64,000 nucleotides of DNA from Bdellovibrionota bacterium (GTDB lineage: Bacteria > Bdellovibrionota > Bdellovibrionia > Bdellovibrionales > Bdellovibrionaceae). This document shows, one piece after another, positions 3,001-10,902 of the stretch. Each line of letters begins with the position of its first letter. The first letter of the stretch is position 1. Under the pieces are notes generated by a model. It saw nothing but the letters and a program-made list of their open reading frames with translations. It was not told the DNA's origin and searched no databases. The stretch lies in contig JBBTCO010000003.1 in the NCBI GenBank assembly GCA_038043185.1, forward strand, positions 1,484 to 65,483, read 5' to 3'. The translations under genes and the position numbers were made by a program.

Positions 3001-3108
3001 AAAATGGATTTAGAAAAACCTTTATCGGTACAGATGAGCAATGATTTTTTTGAGTCTGTTCAAACGGAGCTCGGACGCACCGATTTTATCGAATTGAGGC
3101 CCTCGTGA
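1..3108 (+). CDS. dnaE: DNA polymerase III alpha subunit, 5'-truncated by the window edge
   Basis: Frame 1 is open from nt 1, and the listed M at 46 is an internal TTG. Motifs: GPGRGSGAGSLVAYSLRITDLDP, MPDFDIDF, FDFLGLKTLT, YRPGPM, FNKSHAAAYC. There is a C-terminal OB-like region. About 150 N-terminal residues are missing. Confidence 0.95.
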   Translation, partial: GEIAEAFLKEGPDVALEKIRNLKNIFNDRLYLEMNRTGLPAWKKLNEFILEASKILSVPVVATNDVHYVTPDDQIAQEVLICIGTNKTLQDESRFRLGTSEFYFKTAEEMTALFKDVPEAISNTLEIANRCDVKFKMKDENGKPIYHLPSFPTELGATLKDEIAQRARLGLEQRLEESLSRQEPIPEDKIPVYHERLNFELSVIDRMGFNGYFLIVQDFINWAKNNDIPVGPGRGSGAGSLVAYSLRITDLDPIPHFLLFERFLNPERISMPDFDIDFCQDRRQEVIQYVTEKYGAASVSQIITYGKLQTRAALKDVGRVLGMTFPEVDVVSKLIPDKLGITLKESLEMEPRIREMMESDPQIATLLDLAQRVEGLVRHAGIHAAGVIIADGELIKHAPLYKGAEGENVVQYDMKHAEKIGLIKFDFLGLKTLTHINHALHMIEANRGKKIAAKDIPINDPGIYELMSRGDTAGVFQFEGDGITDATKKIKPTGFADITAITSLYRPGPMANIPDFTKRKNGENPVEYLIDDTKEILQETFGIMVYQEQVMGIASKIAGYSLGEADMLRRAMGKKIKSEMDQHRERFKKGAQIHGHDPKKSDELFDLMYKFADYGFNKSHAAAYCVITAQTAWIKNYYPAEFFAALLSTEISDMDKVVKYVKDAQKRGLKILPPHVNVSNYLFTVKADDVYFGLGAIKGVGQAAVDAIIEAREAQPDKKFNTLEDFFNSLDLRRVNKKVIECLIKAGALDGFNAHRAQLIGGYQAFLDRALGINKDRLSGQTSLFDLDPSEVPEVKLSECKPWARTASLAFEKEVLGFYLSDHPLKGYERIAQIWTSGMTSDLARLAQESPSLASSPNPNPYERRKDQKRRVILVGLITELKELITKKGTRMAFAKIEDLAGSCELVIFPDTFAKYEALCREEGPVLIAGLLESGEGNIKIMVDSISTMDEVLKKTKRVVMRLDRVQVDEYEKLNSILQGHPGSTLVDFEILLPDGKQKVKMDLEKPLSVQMSNDFFESVQTELGRTDFIELRPS

Positions 3109-4292
3109 TAAACAAGATATTTTTTTTAGTTACTTTATTTTTCTTTGTGGGGACAAATTTAGTACAGGCTCAAGAAATTGTTAACTTAGTTGAAAAATCA
3201 ATCACCGGAGATTCGGATGATCCCAGTGAAGTTGTCGCAAAAAAAGAAATTCAAGAAGAAGCTATTAATAAGGTTACCGAAGAAATTCTAAAAGATCTTA
3301 TTGGTTCCGAACGAGTGAGTAAAAACAATGCCTTAATTCAAAATAAAATCTACCGTCAATGGACAAAATACATCCCTTACATAAAAAATAACGAAATCAT
3401 TTTAAAAGATAAAAAATTTCATATGACGGTACAGATGAAATTATCAGTATCAAATTTGCGTTCACTACTGAAGTTGCAAGGTTTGTTAATTGAAGACTCA
3501 ACCACGCCAATTTTTATTCCTCTGGTGACTTTTGTTGACCGAGTGAATGCTCAACAGTACCAATGGTGGAGAGCCGAAGTTTATAAAAATTCGACATTTC
3601 TAAATTTACAAAATCAAAAATTTGAAAAAACTTTGGGCCAAGCCTTTTTTAAAAGCGGTTTGAATCTGATTGAACCCAGCTCTCAAAAATTACATGAGCA
3701 GATTCCCTTTGCTTTTCAAAATGAAAACTGGACCCTTGAAGACGATCAATTTTTAGCACTCTATTTCCTGTCAAATGTTGTGTTGGATGGACAAGTGGTC
3801 ATTGAAAAACATCCTGATTTACGTGATGTTTATAAAATTGATTTTAAAATCGCAGCGATTCAAGTCAACAATGGACGGTCTCTGGCAGAACTGCAACGGC
3901 GAGTGGATACTGAAAAAGGTTCATATAATATGGTTGTTGAAAAGAAGATGAATGAGTTACTTGAAACTCTTATGGCGGATCTGTCTACTCAAGTTTTTGA
4001 TGTTTGGCAAAGAGGTTCTATTGGCGCTACTTTAATCCGTTTATCCTTGAAGGGAAAACTAAGCCCATTAAATCAAGAAGCCTTAAAGGAAAAGCTTAAA
4101 TCCAATATCACTCAGATTAAAAATATCAAAGAACGTTTGATTTCGACAGATATGCTCGTTTATGAAATTGACACCACTTCAAATCCAAAAGAGTTGTCGC
4201 AAAAGATACAGGATTTAAAAATTCCAGGCTTTCAACTGCAAAAACTCAACGACACTGACAAAGAGATCGCATTTCAAATTTTAGGGGGCTAA
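3105..4292 (+). CDS. secreted protein of unknown function, with signal peptide
   Basis: GTG start overlaps the dnaE stop (GTGA). The N-terminus MINKIFFLVTLFFFVGTNLVQA-QE looks like a Sec signal. Long uninterrupted ORF of 395 aa. No motif I can name with certainty. Confidence 0.6.
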   Translation: MINKIFFLVTLFFFVGTNLVQAQEIVNLVEKSITGDSDDPSEVVAKKEIQEEAINKVTEEILKDLIGSERVSKNNALIQNKIYRQWTKYIPYIKNNEIILKDKKFHMTVQMKLSVSNLRSLLKLQGLLIEDSTTPIFIPLVTFVDRVNAQQYQWWRAEVYKNSTFLNLQNQKFEKTLGQAFFKSGLNLIEPSSQKLHEQIPFAFQNENWTLEDDQFLALYFLSNVVLDGQVVIEKHPDLRDVYKIDFKIAAIQVNNGRSLAELQRRVDTEKGSYNMVVEKKMNELLETLMADLSTQVFDVWQRGSIGATLIRLSLKGKLSPLNQEALKEKLKSNITQIKNIKERLISTDMLVYEIDTTSNPKELSQKIQDLKIPGFQLQKLNDTDKEIAFQILGG

Positions 4293-4295
4293 AAG

Positions 4296-5225
4296 ATGTA
4301 TTCAAAATTATTTTTATTTTTTATTATTTGTTCAGCTTTAGGCTGTTCACTATTTGAAACAAAACAAAACCTTCCCCGAAAAGAAATTAAAGATTGGAAT
4401 CCTTCTAAAGCCGTTGACACAGGTTCTCCGCGAAAACGTTTGGCTCTTTTGCCTTTCCTTGACAAGAACCCCAATCATCCTACTGATTTCAAAGAATCGT
4501 CTCGCCGCGCTCTGATGCTTGATCTTAATAAGTCAGGTAATCTTATAGCAATGTCAGCCGACGAATTTAATTTGGATCTTACCAAAAAATTAGCTGATGG
4601 AACCTACGATATGAAAGAACTGACTAAACAAACAAAAGATACCGGCGTGTCCGCATTTCTGGTTGGCCAAATTGTCGCTGTTCGAATTGAATCCAAAGCT
4701 GGGCAAATCGGTATTATTCGCAAATTAAAAACAGGAATTGAAGTGGATGTGCAAGTCAAAGTGGCTTCCATTCGTGGTGGCAAAGAAATATTCAATACTG
4801 TTAAGACCGTTCGCATGGAAGATGAAAATGTACGCGTCGCTGAAAGAGTCGATACCGATAGATTCGTCAAAGCAAATACGGAATTAATCCAAGTGATGAT
4901 CAAAGATGCCTTTTTAGAATTTACTTCACAAATTATTGCTTCTCTTGATCGCATCACCTGGGAAGGCCGTATTGCTGCTGTTCAAGGCGACCGTCTCTTT
5001 TTAAATGTGGGAAGAATCTCGGGACTTCAAGTGGGTGACCTTCTTAAAGTCTCAGAAGATGGTGATGATATTTACGATCCTGATTCGGGAGTTCATATCG
5101 GAAAGAGTCCGGGTCGCTTAAAGGGAACTTTAGAAATCATTAGTTATTTCGGCACGGATGGTTCTATTGCAGTTATTCATTCGGGAGCTGGTTTTAAAGA
5201 GAATGACAAAGTGGAAGTTTACTAG
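4296..5225 (+). CDS. probable lipoprotein of unknown function
   Basis: N-terminus MYSKLFLFFIICSALGC has a probable lipobox. The C-terminal segment (GRIAAVQGDRLFLNVGRISGLQVGDLLKV...GTLEIISY...AVIHSG..FKENDKVEV) resembles the small beta-barrel found at the C-termini of FlgT/CsgG-associated periplasmic lipoproteins; this is a recollection and was not searched. Confidence 0.6.
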   Translation: MYSKLFLFFIICSALGCSLFETKQNLPRKEIKDWNPSKAVDTGSPRKRLALLPFLDKNPNHPTDFKESSRRALMLDLNKSGNLIAMSADEFNLDLTKKLADGTYDMKELTKQTKDTGVSAFLVGQIVAVRIESKAGQIGIIRKLKTGIEVDVQVKVASIRGGKEIFNTVKTVRMEDENVRVAERVDTDRFVKANTELIQVMIKDAFLEFTSQIIASLDRITWEGRIAAVQGDRLFLNVGRISGLQVGDLLKVSEDGDDIYDPDSGVHIGKSPGRLKGTLEIISYFGTDGSIAVIHSGAGFKENDKVEVY

Positions 5226-5909: not shown

Positions 5910-5985
5910 GCGATCTTAGCTCAGTTGGTAGAGTACTTGCATGACATGCAAGGTGTCACAGGTTCGAGTCCTGTAGATCGCACCA
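5910..5985 (+). tRNA. tRNA-Val, anticodon GAC
   Basis: Hand-folded 76-nt cloverleaf. Acceptor GCGATCT/AGATCGC. D arm GCTC-AGTTGGTA-GAGT. Anticodon stem CTTGC/GCAAG with loop ATGACAT (anticodon GAC). T arm ACAGG-TTCGAGT-CCTGT. Discriminator A and an encoded CCA. Confidence 0.92.
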
Positions 5986-6014
5986 ATCTTTCTTAAAAGA
6001 CAGAATGCAGACTT

Positions 6015-6083
6015 CAGAATTCGGTACAGTATTCAGAATACAGTTAACAGTATTCTGAATACTGATCTGTATACTGAATTCTG
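6015..6083. terminator. nested hairpin, probable bidirectional terminator between tRNA-Val and the convergent nuclease gene
   Basis: Perfect 15-bp inverted repeat CAGTATTCAGAATAC (6027-6041) / GTATTCTGAATACTG (6050-6064) with an 8-nt loop. An outer 8-bp pair CAGAATTC (6015-6022) / GAATTCTG (6076-6083) encloses it. T-rich tracts follow on both strands. Confidence 0.55.
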
Positions 6084-6086
6084 TAT

Positions 6087-7145
6087 TTATTTTCCGTGAG
6101 CTTCAGGCAATATAATTTCCGTCGATATATCCACAACTACAGGATAATGATCCGATGGAATCATATTAATAAGTTCAGGCGGTGTGTCCATGGGCAAAGG
6201 CCCGTTTCTACCATTTATCTTATAAGGATAAACAAAAGCTTGTTTTACAAAAGGAGCTAGGGAAGGACTCATCATAATAGCATCTACTTGCCGCAGAACT
6301 CTTCGCCCCTCTTTTCCAAGGAAATAACTTGTAGCTCTTCTAGAAAAAGGAACATTAGCGATATCAAAAGCTTCTTTCAATTGATTTAATAGCGGTTGTA
6401 CTTCTGAACCAGGTTTAATGGTTGCATTAAAATCTCCACCCAAAATTAGAGGAACATTTTCGCCAAATTCCTTTTTAAGAGATATAATAATTTTTTCCAT
6501 AGCCGACATTTCAGCGCGTTTTAATGATGCTGAATTTGGATCATTTTTTCTACTTGCTTTGGAATGACCATGGGCTCCTAACGCAATCATAAAGGGTTGT
6601 TTTTCATTCTTACGTCGAAAAATCAAAGCTGGGAAATCTCGTGTAAAAAGAATTTCTTCCTGGTTATTATTCGATGGATTTTTCCATTTCATGTCTCGAT
6701 GAGTTCTTGTCTCTACGTCAACAGGAATGTCTTCTTTAATTAAAAATCCAATTTGCCTTTGGTCATTGCCTTCAAATAAAAAATGAGTCCATTGATTTTT
6801 TAATTTTGCGCTGGCAAGATACTCCATAGAAACTTGATTTACTTCTAGAAGGATCACAAGATCAGGCTGGGTATCCTTGATTAATTCAGGAATAGCATCA
6901 ACCATTGCTTCGACTGTATCTGAAATCGGAAGTGCTTCATTTGGCTTCTGTTCGATATTCTTTAAGTGTTTTTTTACTTTTAAAAAGTAATCTTCCGCAT
7001 TCAACGACATAAACCTCATGCTTTTAATTTTATTTAGTTCTCGATAATTATAAAAAACTTTAGAACAAGATTGAGCATAAGTAATAGAATCGCTAAATAA
7101 AATACCAGCCAATAAACCGATGCTAATTAAAATAAATTTTTTCAT
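6087..7145 (-). CDS. secreted endonuclease/exonuclease/phosphatase (EEP) family protein
   Basis: Signal peptide MKKFILISIGLLAGILFSDSITYA-Q. EEP motifs in order: MSLNAEDYF, LVILLEV, ILGGDFNA, PSDHYPVVVDI. The start overlaps the stop of the upstream gene (ATGA). Confidence 0.85.
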   Translation of the reverse strand: MKKFILISIGLLAGILFSDSITYAQSCSKVFYNYRELNKIKSMRFMSLNAEDYFLKVKKHLKNIEQKPNEALPISDTVEAMVDAIPELIKDTQPDLVILLEVNQVSMEYLASAKLKNQWTHFLFEGNDQRQIGFLIKEDIPVDVETRTHRDMKWKNPSNNNQEEILFTRDFPALIFRRKNEKQPFMIALGAHGHSKASRKNDPNSASLKRAEMSAMEKIIISLKKEFGENVPLILGGDFNATIKPGSEVQPLLNQLKEAFDIANVPFSRRATSYFLGKEGRRVLRQVDAIMMSPSLAPFVKQAFVYPYKINGRNGPLPMDTPPELINMIPSDHYPVVVDISTEIILPEAHGK

Positions 7146-9247
7146 GGTCTTAAATAGTTACCTATTCTAGTAAAAATGTAGTTTTTAAGATCATTTTCTA
7201 ATGGAGTCGTCCGTAAACGAGCCATAGCCACAGTTGATCCATTAGAGATTTTATAAACAACCAAAGGAACAAGCTCTTCAACATGACTTTGAATTGGTGA
7301 ACGAATTTTAACATTGAATTCCATTTTATATTCGTCACGTGGAAAATCATGGAGCAAATAACCAGCTAACATTACAGTTTCTGCATCGCTGATTGTTTTT
7401 TGAACAAAGCCATCTTGTTCAGCTATTTCTTTGCCTTTTTGAAATGCGGCAAGTAGATCAGGATTTTTTGTAGCCGTCCCTGAACCTGAAATCAAACTTA
7501 AAACCTCATTACGAGTGGCAATGAAAGAAGAGCAGGGACCAGGTTTACAAGAAGCTAAATTAGCGTCAGAAGAAACAAAATCCATTAATAAAACTTCATT
7601 TGCGAAAAAACCAGCGTCGACGCTTTTACCCTTGCGAGTTGTTGCCACAACAGGAAAAGATTCGGGCAAAATACCCAATTGCGGAATTGATGGAAATTGA
7701 ACACTGGCTTGGTTTAAGCTTCTTGCTCCTTTATAATGAAGAGCTAAATAATTAAAATATTCTTTCTTTGCTTTTTGTAATTCTAAATTCACCAAGCCAA
7801 CGTCTTTCGCTGAAAGTGACGGGCCACCTCGAGCTTTTGATTTGTGATAATTTTCCCATGATTTTGATAGAGCTTGAAACCTTGTCTGAAGTTGATTCAA
7901 CTTGGGATCCAAAGAAATCTGGCGAGCATATTCTTCAGGAGTTACAGCCTGACTTAATGTTTTTAAATAGGGCTCAGTCCCTTTTGCTAGAATTAAATCA
8001 TCAATTCCTACTTTAGCTCCATCAAAAGCATCAGGAAGGATCCCGACTTTAACCTGACTGAATCCAGCCTGTTTTATTTGTTGCGCAATAATATAAGCGG
8101 CTCTTTGGCTATCTGTAATACCATCCGTTCGCATTAAACCTTTACCGCGAGGATCACGATCCAATACAACTATAACTTCCTTGGGTTTGGCTTGAACAAT
8201 GGCTTTTGCTAAATTGTTATCAAATTGAGTGATCCCAGGGATTCCTAAAGTTAAAATTCCAGTCGTTTGATTTGCTACTAAACATTTAAATTCACCCTCA
8301 GTGATTACAATTGTTTTTCCTTCAGCTTTATTTAAATTCCAAGCATTATAAAGAGTTTCATTCGGAGCGTATTCTCGATCAATCGAGCGATCCATTTGCC
8401 ATCCGATATATTTTTTTCCGTCATCTCGTTTTTCAATGTTACGAGTTCTCCAAATGGGGATCCCGGACTGATTATTTGATGAAAAGTAAGGGATCTTGAT
8501 CGATTCTTCCTTAGGGATGTCATAAAAGGGTCGACCAGACTCATCGAATTTCATTAAACCCCATCCAGCGTCGCGCATTTGTGCCAAAGAATAACCGTTA
8601 GAGTTGGCCCACTGCTGAATAGAAATAATATTTTCACTGTAATAAGCTAAGCGTGCGACATCTTCCAAGCCTTCGGGCCAATTTCTTTTTTGAGCGAATT
8701 CTTTCAACTTTTTTTGGGCTTCTGGATTTTTCCTGAGATCAGATATCAATTTATTATTAATTTCTTCGATGACTTTCAATTCCTCAATGCTAAGCGCTCT
8801 TCCAAAAATATGAGAACGCAGCTCTGTAAGCAATTCCTTAGAGCCAACTCCTATCTCAAGAATCTTACCATTTTCACCGACGGCAATATAATTCACGTTA
8901 GCCAAACGACGAAAATTTTCCTTCTGATAGCCAAAATCAATTTTTTTATAAATTTGTGTTCCTGAAGGCAAAGCTATCGTGGGGGAGTGACTGATTGAAA
9001 AGATCGTATCTTCATAGGCTTTCGCCTGAGTAGGAAAGCTTAAGTTTAACTGTCTTAAGTGAGAGGGGGGTCTAAATTGAAATGGCTGTTTAAGTCTTAA
9101 ATCCGTTGAATTTCTTAATGAAAGAACTGTTTGTTGCCAGGACTCGTGCTCGTTTAAAAAAACTTTATCGCAACTCAAATCCCCCTTTGCAGAAAGGATT
9201 GGCAGTAAGAATAAAAATAAGAGGAGTGAAAAGCTTTTGTTCAACAT
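7142..9247 (-). CDS. large signal-peptide protein with a central Toprim-like domain
   Basis: N-terminus MLNKSFSLLLFLFLLPILSA-KG. The central region has TIVITEGEFKC (conserved Glu), VIVVLDRDPRG (DxD) and GIDDLIL, the arrangement seen in Toprim domains of plasmid/phage primase-like proteins (DUF3854-like, from memory). The rest has no recognisable motif. Confidence 0.65.
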   Translation of the reverse strand: MLNKSFSLLLFLFLLPILSAKGDLSCDKVFLNEHESWQQTVLSLRNSTDLRLKQPFQFRPPSHLRQLNLSFPTQAKAYEDTIFSISHSPTIALPSGTQIYKKIDFGYQKENFRRLANVNYIAVGENGKILEIGVGSKELLTELRSHIFGRALSIEELKVIEEINNKLISDLRKNPEAQKKLKEFAQKRNWPEGLEDVARLAYYSENIISIQQWANSNGYSLAQMRDAGWGLMKFDESGRPFYDIPKEESIKIPYFSSNNQSGIPIWRTRNIEKRDDGKKYIGWQMDRSIDREYAPNETLYNAWNLNKAEGKTIVITEGEFKCLVANQTTGILTLGIPGITQFDNNLAKAIVQAKPKEVIVVLDRDPRGKGLMRTDGITDSQRAAYIIAQQIKQAGFSQVKVGILPDAFDGAKVGIDDLILAKGTEPYLKTLSQAVTPEEYARQISLDPKLNQLQTRFQALSKSWENYHKSKARGGPSLSAKDVGLVNLELQKAKKEYFNYLALHYKGARSLNQASVQFPSIPQLGILPESFPVVATTRKGKSVDAGFFANEVLLMDFVSSDANLASCKPGPCSSFIATRNEVLSLISGSGTATKNPDLLAAFQKGKEIAEQDGFVQKTISDAETVMLAGYLLHDFPRDEYKMEFNVKIRSPIQSHVEELVPLVVYKISNGSTVAMARLRTTPLENDLKNYIFTRIGNYLRP

Positions 9248-9924
9248 ATTTTCCTTCTAGCAATGAAATGCAAATAGATGTCCTTCTGGAGGTTTATGGG
9301 TTGGCTTTGAGGTTGTAAAAAGCTTGTAAAAACAATTAGAGCTAACAACTGTCTAAAAGTTTGACGAAACCAAAAGTTAATACAGGCAACTTAAACCCAT
9401 AATATTTCCCATTCTCCGGCTGATAGCCCCTTCAGTCTCAGCTTTCGATAAGGAATATTCCCCAAAGCTTCTTGCTCGTTAAGCCTGACATAACTTGCGA
9501 CCGTCCGATACGCCTTCCAGCCACGGATAACCCGAGTGAAGGGTCTGTATCTCCATAGTTTTTTGGATTTTTTTGTGTTTCTTTGGTGTCGACGGGGGAT
9601 CGGTCACCTTTTTCTTTTGATTTAAATCCAGTGCAAAATTTAATAAACCATTTTTTTGAAATTGCTGAGCTATTTGTCCTGTGACGACTCGAAAAAAGCT
9701 TTGGTAATCTGTTCTGCGGCTGGCCCGAATTAAAAAATGGACCAGTAAGCTCGGTTGAATCAAAGCGAATAACTAGGTGGAGAAGAGACGACCCTCGAAT
9801 GGAAGTCTTATTGTCGATGAATTTGAATCTATGAGAATGCATTTATTGTTTTACAGACTACGCCACGCATTATTATCTAAGATTCACAGTGACCTTTAAA
9901 AAAAACCTCTCATATCATAAGGAT

Positions 9925-10902
9925 ATGAAAAAATATTTATTTATAATCACTTTGGGATTTTCATTTTTCAGTTTTGCAATGCAAAAAAAACCAACCAACA
10001 AAACGACTCAAATCCCCACCACTCAGCAGATCCGACAAGAGCGACCGACGAGCCAAATTTATAGCTTTGAAGCTCCAGAACAAGGCGAGTTTCAAACACG
10101 AATGGATCTTGGTTTACTGACTGGCACCTTAAAGTTTTCTACCGAAATTCAAACTCAACGAATCGAAGGAATCGATACTTATTTTTCTGCTTCCTATGGC
10201 CTTACTGATGTTCTTTCTATAGGAGCTCGCGGTTCCTATTTGAATTCATCCAGCGGTGGGACAGTTGCAAATACAAGTAGAGCTAGCGCAAGTAAAGCTG
10301 GCCTGGGGGACCCAGAAATATTTTTAACTACAAGAGTTAATCCTGGTCGCATGCAACTGTATTTAATGATGATCGCCGGGATAATGGCCTCAGATTTTGA
10401 AGTTGATAATCTACGGGGAAGTACAACAAACTCGAGTGGCGCCTATTATGTTGAGCCTAAGTTTTCAACAAGCATAACCATGGGCTCATTTTTATTGGGC
10501 GGCTCTGCCAGCTATCGCTATCATTTCAATCGTCAAGTTTCTATAATTAGCAGCTCTGGAACTGAATCACTTCGTTTAGATCCAGGGAATCGTATTCGTG
10601 CAAGTATCAATTCGGAAGTTCTAACTTCGTACCCTTTTGGTTTCGAAATAGAATACCTTTTGCAGGATCGTTATGAAGCTTTTTCCCTCTCGACTCCCGG
10701 TGGACAAAAACTGACATTTGGAAATACCACAATATTGGGAGCATCAGCTTATATAAGATTTTTAACAGATATGGGTTTTGGCAACTTTGAGCTTGTTCCT
10801 TGGATAAGCTATCAAACAAATGTCGGCAAAAAACGAGGAACTGCTAATGTCGAGGACGACCAGTTGATGACATTTATATTGAAACTTCAGATGATGTTTT
10901 AA
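9925..10902 (+). CDS. outer-membrane beta-barrel protein (hypothetical)
   Basis: The ATG at 9925 is preceded by AAGGA; the listed 9889 start is a GTG extension. Signal peptide MKKYLFIITLGFSFFSFA. Gly/Ser/Thr-rich alternating pattern. C-terminus ...LKLQMMF ends in Phe, as in OMP sorting signals. Confidence 0.65.
   Translation: MKKYLFIITLGFSFFSFAMQKKPTNKTTQIPTTQQIRQERPTSQIYSFEAPEQGEFQTRMDLGLLTGTLKFSTEIQTQRIEGIDTYFSASYGLTDVLSIGARGSYLNSSSGGTVANTSRASASKAGLGDPEIFLTTRVNPGRMQLYLMMIAGIMASDFEVDNLRGSTTNSSGAYYVEPKFSTSITMGSFLLGGSASYRYHFNRQVSIISSSGTESLRLDPGNRIRASINSEVLTSYPFGFEIEYLLQDRYEAFSLSTPGGQKLTFGNTTILGASAYIRFLTDMGFGNFELVPWISYQTNVGKKRGTANVEDDQLMTFILKLQMMF

Follow-up and report, generated by a model that had tools for sequence, protein, structure and literature searches.

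Textbooks place DnaG-type primase cores and Toprim enzymes in the cytoplasm, and the operon described here raises the question of why a protein with such a core should begin with a predicted Sec signal peptide and be coupled to a second leader-bearing enzyme. The operon lies in a window of 64,000 nucleotides, by which the whole stretch of DNA analysed is meant; its source is a groundwater relative of Bdellovibrio. A first-pass annotation had described the products as a signal-peptide Toprim protein and a secreted EEP nuclease sharing a post-signal motif. That observation as a whole was confirmed, and its interpretation was supported in part: the Toprim assignment, the motif, the leaders and the two-component link held, and the alternative of a tRNA-integrated element did not.

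According to the list of open reading frames and direct reading of the sequence, the operon consists of two translationally coupled genes on the minus strand. The first (P0001, 7142..9247) encodes a 701-aa DnaG-core/Toprim protein that is predicted to be exported and has at least 44 homologues in Bdellovibrionota MAGs. The second (P0045, 6087..7145) encodes a 352-aa EEP-fold phosphodiesterase, likewise predicted to be exported. Both reading frames were as previously described, and the ATGA stop/start overlap (7142..7145, minus strand) was read directly, as was a Shine-Dalgarno sequence, GAAGGA (9252..9257, minus strand), placed 4 nt before the first ATG of the 701-aa gene. A tRNA-Val(GAC) gene (5910-5985, plus strand) is convergent with the operon.

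The Toprim domain of the 701-aa protein (residues 310-425; 7973..8320, minus strand) carries the motifs ITEGEFKC (residues 315-322), VLDRDPRG (361-368) and GIDDLIL (414-420). In a 31-sequence family alignment, the motif residues T316, E317, G318, E319, K321, D363, D365, D416 and D417 occupied invariant columns. Outside the Toprim domain, R188, R269 and Y280 were also invariant, with K279 conserved in at least 90%, so that the family retains its catalytic acidic residues as well as R269, K279 and Y280 of the basic motifs. Pfam located DUF3854 (PF12965; 21.9 bits, E=1.8e-4, cut-off 23) and Toprim_3 (20 bits, cut-off 27.2) at residues 310-425, in both cases with a score just short of the cut-off. 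DUF3854 was matched by 25 of the 31 relatives (E<0.01, best E=4e-7), several of which have precomputed PF12965 matches; judged by sequence, the protein in the window is a divergent outlier of its family. The central region is nevertheless Toprim, as annotated at first pass, though its Pfam scores fall just under threshold: all 31 aligned sequences keep the glutamate E317 (TEGE) and D363-R-D365, and the domain matches the Toprim domains of RNase M5 and DnaG in structure.

The AF2 model of the 701-aa protein (pLDDT 90.2, pTM 0.87) points to a whole DnaG-type primase RNA-polymerase core, beyond the Toprim domain alone. The best 20 Foldseek matches in the PDB were all DnaG RPDs (TMt 0.63-0.69, E down to 6.5e-12), with 5guj first (E=6.5e-12, TMt 0.69). 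The same entry was matched by the family profile against PDB sequences (E=7.7e-4), the phage DNA primase family phrog_47 matched at E=9.3e-13, and all BFVD structural matches were primases. The core spans residues ~191-505 (N-subdomain, Toprim and helical hairpin; 7733..8677, minus strand), and the N-subdomain motifs IKIPYF, WRTRN and KKYIGW lie within this interval. Aligned to B. subtilis DnaG, the N-subdomain motifs pair as IKIPFF/RVMFPI, WRTR/FSGR and PKYLSWP/PKYMNSP. The core is flanked by two confidently modelled alpha/beta domains. The N-terminal one (residues ~44-190; 8678..9118, minus strand) is common to the long leaderless class and had no match in Pfam or the PDB, where those searches returned the DnaG core only; the C-terminal one (residues 506-701; 7145..7732, minus strand) likewise had no Pfam or PDB match.

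With bacterial DnaG RPDs (5guj, 1dd9, 4edg, 3b39) the protein shares the N-subdomain, Toprim and helical subdomain (TM ~0.65-0.69 over ~320 residues), the Toprim glutamate, the DxD, the second acidic pair and the basic-ridge motifs K-Y-L, (W/G)R-x-R and R-G-(W/L). It differs in having a predicted Sec leader and a cysteine handle in place of the CHC2 zinc-binding domain, no DnaB-binding C-terminal domain, extra N- and C-terminal domains that match no known fold, an exported-class cysteine pair, and a lysine (EGEFK) where DnaG has D269 of EGYMD; in addition, it is paired or fused with a phosphodiesterase, and its gene is not a replication gene. Pfam gave no zf-CHC2 match at E<=1 and no DnaB_bind or helicase domain, and the N-terminal domain contains no Cys/His cluster, the only cysteines of the protein being at positions 26, 322, 567 and 572. 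A bona fide replicative DnaG primase was ruled out by the lack of a CHC2 zinc-binding domain and of a DnaB-binding domain or fused helicase.

Two further groups of Toprim proteins were compared. DUF3854 (PF12965)/Toprim_3 proteins of plasmids and phages (cyanobacterial CyRepA, phrog_47) have the same Toprim subtype, TEGxxK ... DxD. DUF3854 proteins, including cyanobacterial CyRepA, are cytoplasmic replication initiators fused to helicases (PMC10079941), whereas the family in the window is chromosomal, leader-bearing, free of helicases and restricted to Bdellovibrionota. In Toprim nucleases (RNase M5, OLD/Gabija GajA, PARIS AriB), the Toprim metal centre is used for phosphodiester hydrolysis, and the RNase M5 Toprim superposes on that of the 701-aa protein with TMt 0.74-0.77. 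However, the 701-aa protein has a full DnaG N-subdomain, absent from RNase M5, GajA and AriB, and its match to Toprim nucleases was far weaker (E 4e-2 and weaker) than that to primases (1e-11 to 1e-8). It also lacks an ATPase domain in Pfam and PADLOC searches; with no N-terminal ABC-type ATPase domain, it is not an OLD-family or Gabija-type Toprim nuclease.

Such a core might still be a nucleotidyl transferase. The DnaG-like protein would then act as a primase-like RNA or oligonucleotide synthase where NTPs occur, for example in prey cytoplasm, the EEP enzyme would process its products or substrates, and the module would sabotage or signal. Nucleotidyl transfer is possible because the core keeps the conserved basic motif residues; like the Toprim acidic residues, they show little or no variation, the N-subdomain can be aligned motif by motif with B. 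subtilis DnaG, and every one of the best matches by fold and by profile is a bona fide primase. The retention of R188, R269 and K279, which we take to be the NTP-contacting residues in DnaG structures, counts against a pure nuclease, which would not obviously need them, and we know of no DnaG-core protein that is a nuclease. On the other hand, NTPs are absent from the periplasm and the medium, the zinc-binding domain for template recognition and the helicase-binding domain are missing, the alternative partners described below are nuclease-like (sub-threshold), and the dsRBDs of the sister class are found more typically in enzymes that cleave or bind RNA. Synthesis was regarded as unlikely, and hydrolysis by the DnaG-like core as the more plausible chemistry.

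The first-pass assignment of the partner to the EEP fold proved correct. The 352-aa protein reached the gathering cut-off for Exo_endo_phos (PF03372) with a score of 24.7 against 24.5. N49, E101, D170, H192, D238, N240, D288, D332 and H333 are invariant in its EEP homologues, which includes the complete catalytic set N49, E101, D238, N240, D288, D332 and H333. Its AF2 model (pLDDT 86.9) gave 223 PDB matches at E<=1e-3, of which the best 50 were all EEP-fold enzymes. Among the matches listed, the top ones were TDP2, nocturnin, CNOT6L and LINE-1 EN: TDP2 was best (E about 6e-15, TMt up to 0.77), and nocturnin, CNOT6L, Bacteroides EEPs and LINE-1 EN followed within 1-2 orders of magnitude at 11-17% identity. 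On the model, the enzyme thus appears nearest in fold to TDP2/nocturnin/CCR4 rather than to DNase I-type nucleases, with E-values of the EEP subfamilies lying too close together to single one out. It shares with TDP2, nocturnin and CCR4-CNOT6L the fold and the canonical N, E, D, N, D and H catalytic residues, and differs from them in its low identity, bacterial origin, predicted Sec leader, single N-terminal cysteine and lack of UBA or LRR domains.

When the EEP sequence profile was searched against the PDB, the ranking differed from that by fold, the best matches being mannosyl-6-phosphatase, nocturnin and beta-hemolysin/sphingomyelinase. By sequence, these matches would count against a nucleic-acid reading, and the non-nuclease enzymes among the nearest modelled folds, such as the NADPH phosphatase nocturnin, would count against a nuclease. 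The pair could accordingly be imagined to act outside the cell on other phosphoesters (phospholipid or sphingolipid-like head groups, sugar phosphates, envelope polymers or dinucleotide cofactors), with the DnaG-like protein as a phosphate-ester-binding or catalytic subunit. We consider this quite unlikely, as the DnaG core fold and the dsRBD-fused sister class point to nucleic acid, TDP2, CNOT6L and LINE-1 endonuclease prevail among the fold matches listed, and the locus has no linked genes related to lipids or sugars.

Both proteins appear, from their sequences, to be sent outside the cytoplasm. For Sec substrates of SPase I, a positive n-region, a hydrophobic core of 7-15 residues and small residues at -3/-1 were taken as criteria. 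Heuristic n/h/c-region analysis predicted a signal peptide at residues 1-22 of the 701-aa protein (MLNK / SFSLLLFLFLLPIL / SAKG; 9182..9247, minus strand) and at residues 1-24 of the EEP protein (MKK / FILISIGLLAGILF / SDSITYA; 7074..7145, minus strand), both with a positive n-region, an uncharged hydrophobic core and small-x-small sites. The former leader is conserved in 44 family members and is helical with low pLDDT in the AF2 model; the latter is conserved in 6-7 homologues. A heuristic scan recovered the three features across 50 leader-bearing homologues, and they persist among sequences diverged to ~30% identity. Predicted export is further supported by a cysteine pair confined to the leader class: C567-x4-C572, a putative structural disulfide in a loop (7532..7549, minus strand), occurs in 35 of 50 leader-class or fusion members and in 0 of 23 leaderless long-class members (Fisher p=2.9e-9). 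The leaders proposed at first pass therefore look like signal peptides by these heuristics.

Were the N-termini membrane anchors or annotation artefacts, the pair would form a cytoplasmic replication, repair or defence module, namely a DUF3854-type primase with a nuclease. This reading, to which we attach a very low probability, draws on the fact that every characterised protein of the DUF3854, Toprim and DnaG types is cytoplasmic, as with DUF3854 in the Rep proteins of cyanobacterial plasmids (PMC10079941), on a weak PADLOC match to a DRT-associated DnaG-like protein (E=1e-3) and on the existence of the leaderless sister class. It is opposed by the conservation of n-region, h-region and small-x-small site just described, by the restriction of the cysteine pair to the leader class, by the single leader kept at the N-terminus of both fusions (see below), by operon partners in other clades, which also bear leaders, and by the neighbourhood, in which no helicase, replication or defence genes were found. 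We thus continue with exported proteins as the preferred reading.

Both leaders are followed by a cysteine. The segments are D23-N32 of the 701-aa protein (DLSCDKVFLN; 9152..9181, minus strand), with the invariant Cys26 (codon 9170-9172; alignment A1), and Q25-N33 of the EEP protein (QSCSKVFYN; 7047..7073, minus strand), with Cys27, its sole cysteine; in the EEPs the handle cysteine is likewise the only one. A cysteine after the hydrophobic core was present in 44 of 44 leader-bearing DnaG-like homologues and 6 of 6 leader-bearing EEP homologues. Position +3 from it was hydrophobic in 39/44 and 4/6, respectively, and position +4 was F, Y or W in 26/44 (36/44 counting L/I/M) and 4/6. Of the S-C-x-K-V-F-x-N motif noted earlier, the cysteine and the hydrophobic/aromatic pattern are therefore conserved in orthologues of both proteins, whereas the identities S(-1), K(+2) and N(+6) are peculiar to this locus. 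The resulting consensus, C-x-x-hydrophobic-[F/Y/L], occurs once per polypeptide in both fusions.

The segment is not a lipobox. The SPase II pattern L-[ASTVI]-[GAS]-C was absent from the leader-bearing homologues: the residue before the cysteine was G, A or S in 16 of 43 sequences, as counted from printed contexts, and R, Q, N, T or others elsewhere (most frequently S, R, Q, A, N and T overall), leucine stood at -2 and not at -3, charged residues (K, D, E, R) lay between h-region and cysteine, and a separate SPase I-type site preceded the cysteine by 2-7 residues. The handle, x(2-7)-Cys-x-x-hydrophobic-[F/Y/L] after the leader, probably serves to pair the components, or to tether them, by way of a disulfide or a common docking site. 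As a single post-leader cysteine in two, possibly more, unrelated partners, it offers a testable hypothesis and, if true, would represent a new type of tag, placed after the signal peptide, for pairing or sorting.

The family is uncharacterised and was found solely in Bdellovibrionota metagenome genomes. The same gene pair is adjacent in one relative (L001). At a syntenic locus in another (L030, P0003), the two are fused in place as Toprim->EEP, and in a third (L029, P0032) in the opposite order, EEP->Toprim; both fusions are continuous reading frames with a single N-terminal leader. Natural fusions in both orders indicate that the two proteins are functionally linked. For the exported nucleic-acid-degrading module proposed at first pass, the two-component part is thus strongly supported; degradation stays a putative activity, with the EEP fold nearest TDP2/nocturnin/CCR4 and the basic residues of the core kept.

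Among about 20 independent loci, only about 4 have an EEP gene next to or fused with the DnaG-like gene, which counts against the module. Other adjacent partners carry PD-(D/E)xK-like signatures, both sub-threshold: a weak NERD match (E=0.025) in L002 and a motif seen by eye in L027. A modular exported machine is conceivable, and we regard it as a tentative possibility, in which a DnaG-core scaffold or enzyme would be coupled, covalently or by specific binding, via the cysteine handle to interchangeable catalytic partners bearing that handle too (EEP; NERD/PD-(D/E)xK-like; others), the core being catalytic as a nuclease or in template-bound oligonucleotide synthesis in prey. The leaderless long sister class, likewise uncharacterised, consists of a double DnaG core with dsRNA-binding repeats, the same module being fused to dsRNA-binding domains (dsrm E=8e-25) and adjoining a dsrm protein. 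Its dsRNA link recalls RNase M5 and, together with the PD-(D/E)xK-like partners, would favour a link to nucleic acid at the level of sequence. It also offers a built-in comparison of cytoplasmic and predicted exported versions.

The reading that we favour, at about even confidence, is that of a two-enzyme module working outside the cytoplasm (in the periplasm, the medium or invaded prey), most likely on nucleic acid. The 701-aa protein would be a Sec-exported derivative of the DnaG catalytic core, with an intact Toprim metal centre and a basic ridge binding nucleic acid or nucleotides, and the 352-aa protein an EEP metallo-phosphodiesterase from the TDP2/nocturnin/CCR4 branch, also exported through Sec. 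Single-stranded or A-form nucleic acid may be bound in the groove of the DnaG-like core, whose Toprim centre would cleave phosphodiester bonds or which would present the strand to its partner; the EEP enzyme could then trim ends or cut, giving 5'-phosphorylated products importable by the cell. A precedent for a non-replicative role is archaeal DnaG in the RNA exosome, where a DnaG-core protein is the RNA-binding, RNA-presenting subunit beside an exoribonuclease. Unlike the module described here, it is cytoplasmic and part of a multi-subunit exosome, with no EEP partner and no leader.

Bdellovibrionota are known for predation on other bacteria, and a family confined to this phylum and welded to a phosphodiesterase by fusions is a candidate component, so far unrecognised, of the processing of prey or extracellular nucleic acid, which would probably account for a primase-type enzyme in so unusual a place. 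A conserved, apparently exported DnaG-core lineage with intact catalytic residues would extend where and why such chemistry serves; no catalytic role for a DnaG core is known from outside the cytoplasm. By analogy, a nucleic-acid role would also be favoured by the secreted nucleases with which Bdellovibrio digests prey DNA (PMC7925074, PMC3593177). Those of B. bacteriovorus (Bd0934, Bd3507, Bd1244, Bd1934) are likewise exported and come from this phylum, and they have been proposed to digest nucleic acid of prey or of the surroundings; they are described as single-protein nucleases, with no two-gene or fused module, DnaG-like partner or cysteine handle reported in the abstracts, and the comparison is by description only.

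As for the position of the operon, a decaying mobile-element remnant at tRNA-Val, whose primase gene gained a hydrophobic N-terminus by accident, had been offered as an alternative. This is extremely improbable and already largely refuted. Both reading frames are intact, with invariant catalytic residues and evident purifying selection, and leader and cysteine are conserved across the family. Neither an integrase in the window neighbourhood nor a direct repeat of the tRNA-Val end within 7 kb was found. Housekeeping genes flank the operon, three genomes share the upstream gene order, with six upstream genes syntenic in L001 and L030 and the operon at the same position in both, and most other loci of the family have no adjacent tRNA. 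A tRNA-integrated genomic island was rejected on the missing integrase and att repeat and on this shared position; the locus is chromosomal and its tRNA-Val neighbour incidental. In favour of a remnant, the operon abuts the 3' side of tRNA-Val, the downstream flank varies among relatives, with an integrase fragment ~2 kb away in L030, a tRNA-Arg adjoins the L028 copy, and base composition is low in GC. The greater AT-richness than that of the neighbours, previously judged by eye, is real and modest: GC of the operon region was 0.366, at the 0.7th percentile, where the window mean is 0.407 (sd 0.016 among stretches of equal size), and GC3 of the two genes was 0.247 and 0.290, where the mean is 0.361 (sd 0.043).

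The best-supported reading of the operon, with about even confidence, is a module of two exported enzymes that work on nucleic acid outside the cytoplasm. Both open reading frames claimed in the first-pass annotation were found exactly as described beside tRNA-Val: the gene of the 352-aa protein at 6087..7145 and that of the 701-aa protein at 7142..9247, both on the reverse strand and joined by an ATGA overlap (…AGA CCA TGA AAA…, read directly from the sequence). A Shine-Dalgarno sequence, GAAGGA, ends 4 nt upstream of the first ATG of the 701-aa gene. The tRNA-Val(GAC) gene (5910-5985), which was the sole Rfam match, lies on the other strand and converges on the operon.

The AT-richness that had been noted by eye was genuine though modest. 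GC content of the operon was 0.366 versus 0.407 for the window (0.7th percentile among same-size windows), and GC3 of the two genes was 0.29 and 0.247, with a mean of 0.361 (sd 0.043). Promoter and terminator scans gave no excess relative to shuffled sequences. The spacer of ~100 nt between the EEP stop codon and tRNA-Val (5990-6086) is packed with palindromic 'CAGTATTCAGAATACTG / TATTCTGAATACTG' repeats, which may terminate transcription in both directions or constitute a small repeat element; a simple terminator scan left this spacer unflagged. The 640-nt gap upstream of the operon (9248-9888) contains a 134-aa ORF (9438-9842, reverse strand) that public annotations list as a gene; it is of low complexity, matches nothing in Pfam and is probably spurious. 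The equivalent spacer in L030, the locus of a close relative, is ~175 nt long and lacks this ORF; the spacer in the window may be an insertion.

The 701-aa protein had been described as a Toprim protein. In a 31-sequence family alignment the Toprim acidic set (T316-E317-G318-E319-x-K321, D363-x-D365 and D416-D417) was indeed invariant, but the description proved too narrow, as a whole DnaG-type core is present. R188, R269 and Y280 were also invariant, and R267 and K279 nearly so. Pfam searches of residues 310-425 gave 21.9 bits for DUF3854 (cut-off 23) and 20 bits for Toprim_3 (cut-off 27.2), while DUF3854 was matched by 25 of the 31 relatives (best E=4e-7).

An AlphaFold2 model built from the same alignment reached a pLDDT of 90.2 and a pTM of 0.87, with residues 1-33 alone poorly defined. 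All of its best 20 PDB structure matches were RNA-polymerase domains of DnaG, led by B. subtilis 5guj (E=6.5e-12, TM 0.69 on target) and followed by E. coli 1dd9/3b39, S. aureus 4edg and M. tuberculosis 5w33; the primase domains of Twinkle and T7 gp4 came thereafter. Matches to isolated Toprim domains (RNase M5, RecR) were far weaker than those to DnaG. Searching PDB with the single 701-aa sequence yielded noise; the family profile independently matched 5guj (E=7.7e-4), pairing IKIPFF with RVMFPI, WRTR with FSGR and PKYLSWP with PKYMNSP. PHROGs returned phrog_47 'DNA primase' (E=9.3e-13), and the viral structure matches were all DnaG/Twinkle primases. Because fold, profile, PHROG and viral matches agree, the protein contains a complete DnaG-type catalytic core (approximately residues 191-505), beyond a mere Toprim domain.

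By alignment with 5guj, R188, R269 and K279 are presumably equivalent to the basic residues with which DnaG contacts an incoming NTP. Since these basic motif residues are intact, the main rival explanation, which we consider unlikely, is that the DnaG-like core has kept its ability to polymerise NTPs and does so in the prey cytoplasm, for instance. Replicative DnaG primases share the scaffold, but two of their defining features are missing here: Pfam found neither a CHC2 zinc finger nor a helicase or helicase-binding domain in the 701-aa protein. The flanking domains (N-terminal ~44-190 and C-terminal 506-701) had no recognisable relatives. The DUF3854 proteins characterised so far are plasmid Rep proteins of the cytoplasm (PMC10079941), and the 701-aa protein is a divergent outlier of that family.

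For the 352-aa protein, the proposed EEP nuclease/phosphatase identity held with respect to fold and catalytic set, while 'nuclease' is a plausible label. Exo_endo_phos was matched at the Pfam gathering score, and the canonical catalytic residues (N49, E101, D170, H192, D238, N240, D288, D332 and H333) were invariant in a 14-sequence alignment. The structure model (pLDDT 86.9) had its nearest match in TDP2 (E about 6e-15, TM up to 0.77), with nocturnin, CNOT6L/CCR4, Bacteroides EEPs and LINE-1 endonuclease close behind. Taken together with the sequence-profile matches, which were weak and mixed (mannosyl-6-phosphatase, nocturnin, sphingomyelinases, TDP2), these features point to an EEP phosphodiesterase that looks active and belongs to the end-processing branch. 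Such mixed matches leave some room for a pair acting on non-nucleic-acid substrates; next to the DnaG-type core of the partner, this appears quite improbable.

The two proteins are functionally linked, as the proposal of a two-component module had implied, because the genes are translationally coupled, recur as a pair in L001, the nearest genomic relative (57% and 45% identity), and have been fused in both orders. In a close relative with the same syntenic position (P0003/L030), the pair forms one 984-aa ORF, and in a more distant one (P0032/L029, 1174 aa) the order is reversed, EEP preceding the DnaG-like part. At both junctions a hydrophilic linker replaces the internal leader and Cys segment, and the N-terminal leader and Cys are kept. 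In an exported module, the DnaG-like core would bind strands and either cleave them at the Toprim centre or present them, and the EEP would trim or cut, leaving 5'-phosphorylated products. This would fit the known reliance of Bdellovibrio on secreted nucleases (PMC7925074, PMC3593177).

In a heuristic scan, 44 DnaG-like and 6 EEP homologues with leaders, diverged to ~30% identity, showed positively charged n-regions, hydrophobic cores free of charge and small-x-small sites, in agreement with the signal peptides predicted earlier for both N-termini. Apparent exceptions were mis-called starts (P0033 versus L010, P0018 versus L034), and further operon partners in other lineages were also leader-bearing. 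With these leaders conserved, a pair that is not exported is very unlikely.

A deep profile search returned 529 relatives, 67 of them with E below 1e-30, and brought out a sister class of proteins 1300-2100 aa long, which start at approximately profile position 45-58 and have neither leader nor N-terminal Cys. One loop carries a C-x(3-5)-C pair (here C567/C572) in 35/50 leader-class or fusion members and in 0/23 leaderless members (Fisher p=2.9e-9), a contrast that would be expected of a disulfide gained in an oxidising compartment. The leaderless proteins (P0061-P0091; for example L007:9830-16126, L008:9935-13951 and L035:2935-6957, all on the forward strand) are diverse. In them the same 650-residue module is followed by a second, DnaG_N/Toprim-like module and C-terminal dsRNA-binding (dsrm) repeats, and this uncharacterised class could be an RNA-directed enzyme. 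In L007, a small protein with 2x dsrm is encoded upstream (L007:9122-9775), with chromosomal genes around (cysS, DAO).

The post-signal motif that had been noticed in both proteins is kept in their homologues. A Cys follows the leader in 44/44 DnaG-like and 6/6 EEP leader-bearing members (here C26 and C27), at about +3 to +8 from the predicted cleavage sites. A hydrophobic residue occupies handle position +3 in 39/44 and 4/6, and position +4 is F/Y/W in 26/44 (36/44 with L/I/M) and 4/6, respectively. This Cys is the sole cysteine of the EEPs, and EEP homologues standing alone in their genomes keep the motif.

Several explanations of the Cys were discarded. A lipoprotein does not fit, given the missing lipobox, the charged residues between h-region and Cys, and a separate upstream SPase I-type site. 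A proteome-wide sorting tag found no support in the sample (~129-196 leader-like ORFs from the window and ~30 loci), where the signature was confined to the two families and a few immediate neighbours, other occurrences being chance matches within membrane helices. Pairing of C26 with C322 (TEGEFKC) is unlikely, because the leaderless class conserves C322 just as well although it has no C26. Because the fusions keep the handle, a simple heterodimer-only disulfide is also argued against. We infer that each polypeptide has one N-terminal handle by which it is paired or tethered; the handle could form a disulfide or dock at a shared site.

In other lineages, the DnaG-like gene adjoins different leader-bearing proteins with an early, sole or near-sole Cys. 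Partner post-signal segments were closer within than between loci (top 3-6 of 120 permutations; five loci, two of which drive the result). Four such neighbours are lineage-specific orphans whose Cys context resembles that of the adjoining DnaG-like protein: P0183 (358 aa, L027:8114-9190, forward; KGPVCADIL), a 288-aa protein (L002:8895-9761, reverse; EVNSNCVRSLLP), a 305-aa protein (L003:2503-3420, forward; SGALFCNAIE) and a 132-aa protein (L033:2950-3381, forward; APRTLNCPQLVY). PD-(D/E)xK-like motifs were seen in two of them, namely 'PDG…ESK' by eye in P0183 and 'EID…CEAK' in the L002 protein, which also has a weak NERD match (E=0.025); no other feature was identified in the L003 and L033 proteins. 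No homologues of P0183 were found and its PDB search gave noise; when the EEP profile was compared with the L002 and L003 partners by hhalign, no relationship emerged.

The suggestion of a degenerate tRNA-integrated element was not borne out, and a mobile-element remnant is extremely improbable. The window flanks consist of housekeeping genes (dnaE, guaA, guaB, lipB, ttcA, mscS, trmA-like), with no integrase in the neighbourhood and no repeat of the tRNA end, and six upstream genes are in synteny with L001 and L030. Among the other loci scanned, a tRNA directly adjoins the gene only in L028 (tRNA-Arg, L028:8168-8243, reverse); in L006, a tRNA-Cys lies ~10 kb off at the locus edge. The downstream flank varies among relatives, and in L030 it carries an HTH gene and a phage-integrase fragment (L030:10934-11539, reverse). 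The DnaG-like gene itself is vertically inherited, though at the edge of a plastic region. Known defence systems were also dismissed, as PADLOC gave sub-threshold matches only (RTasDnaG-like, E=1e-3, and a spurious SLATT on the signal peptide).

Genomic matches came from Bdellovibrionota MAGs (Bdellovibrionaceae, Pseudobdellovibrionaceae, Bacteriovoracaceae, Oligoflexia), with no cultured strain among the family accessions. The one exception, L008 (CAZAFC010000010.1), carries a long-class member under the label 'uncultured Candidatus Saccharibacteria', probably a binning error. Sequence clusters of the family held 1-2 members each, without functional names, and the identical protein was present in Hainich groundwater metagenomes. 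A literature search brought up no paper describing export of a Toprim, DnaG-like or DUF3854 protein, nor one on this family in Bdellovibrio. The DnaG-like protein, predicted to be exported, has an unexplained conserved Cys handle and an uncharacterised cytoplasmic sister class.

Recurrent neighbour families were found only in the Bdellovibrio/Pseudobdellovibrionaceae clade, where an MFS transporter and motAB lie upstream and the gene after the DnaG-like one invariably encodes a conserved ~747-aa protein (L011:11672-13912, L014:11672-13912, L016:11908-14154, L012:3295-5541 and L010:4422-6695, all forward). It carries a signal peptide (…VYA|LDSRS), lacks a Cys handle and matches nothing in Pfam. 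In the window, a divergently transcribed gene (9889-10902, forward) encodes a 337-aa protein that has a signal peptide, ends in …LQMMF and resembles an outer-membrane beta-barrel; it is syntenic beside the operon in L001 and L030 (52-54% identity), and a functional link to the operon, as channel or uptake component, is possible. Between dnaE and lipB (3105-5225, forward), two unannotated proteins without Pfam match are predicted to be exported: one of 395 aa has a signal peptide, and the other is a lipoprotein of 309 aa with the lipobox ALGC followed by SLF.
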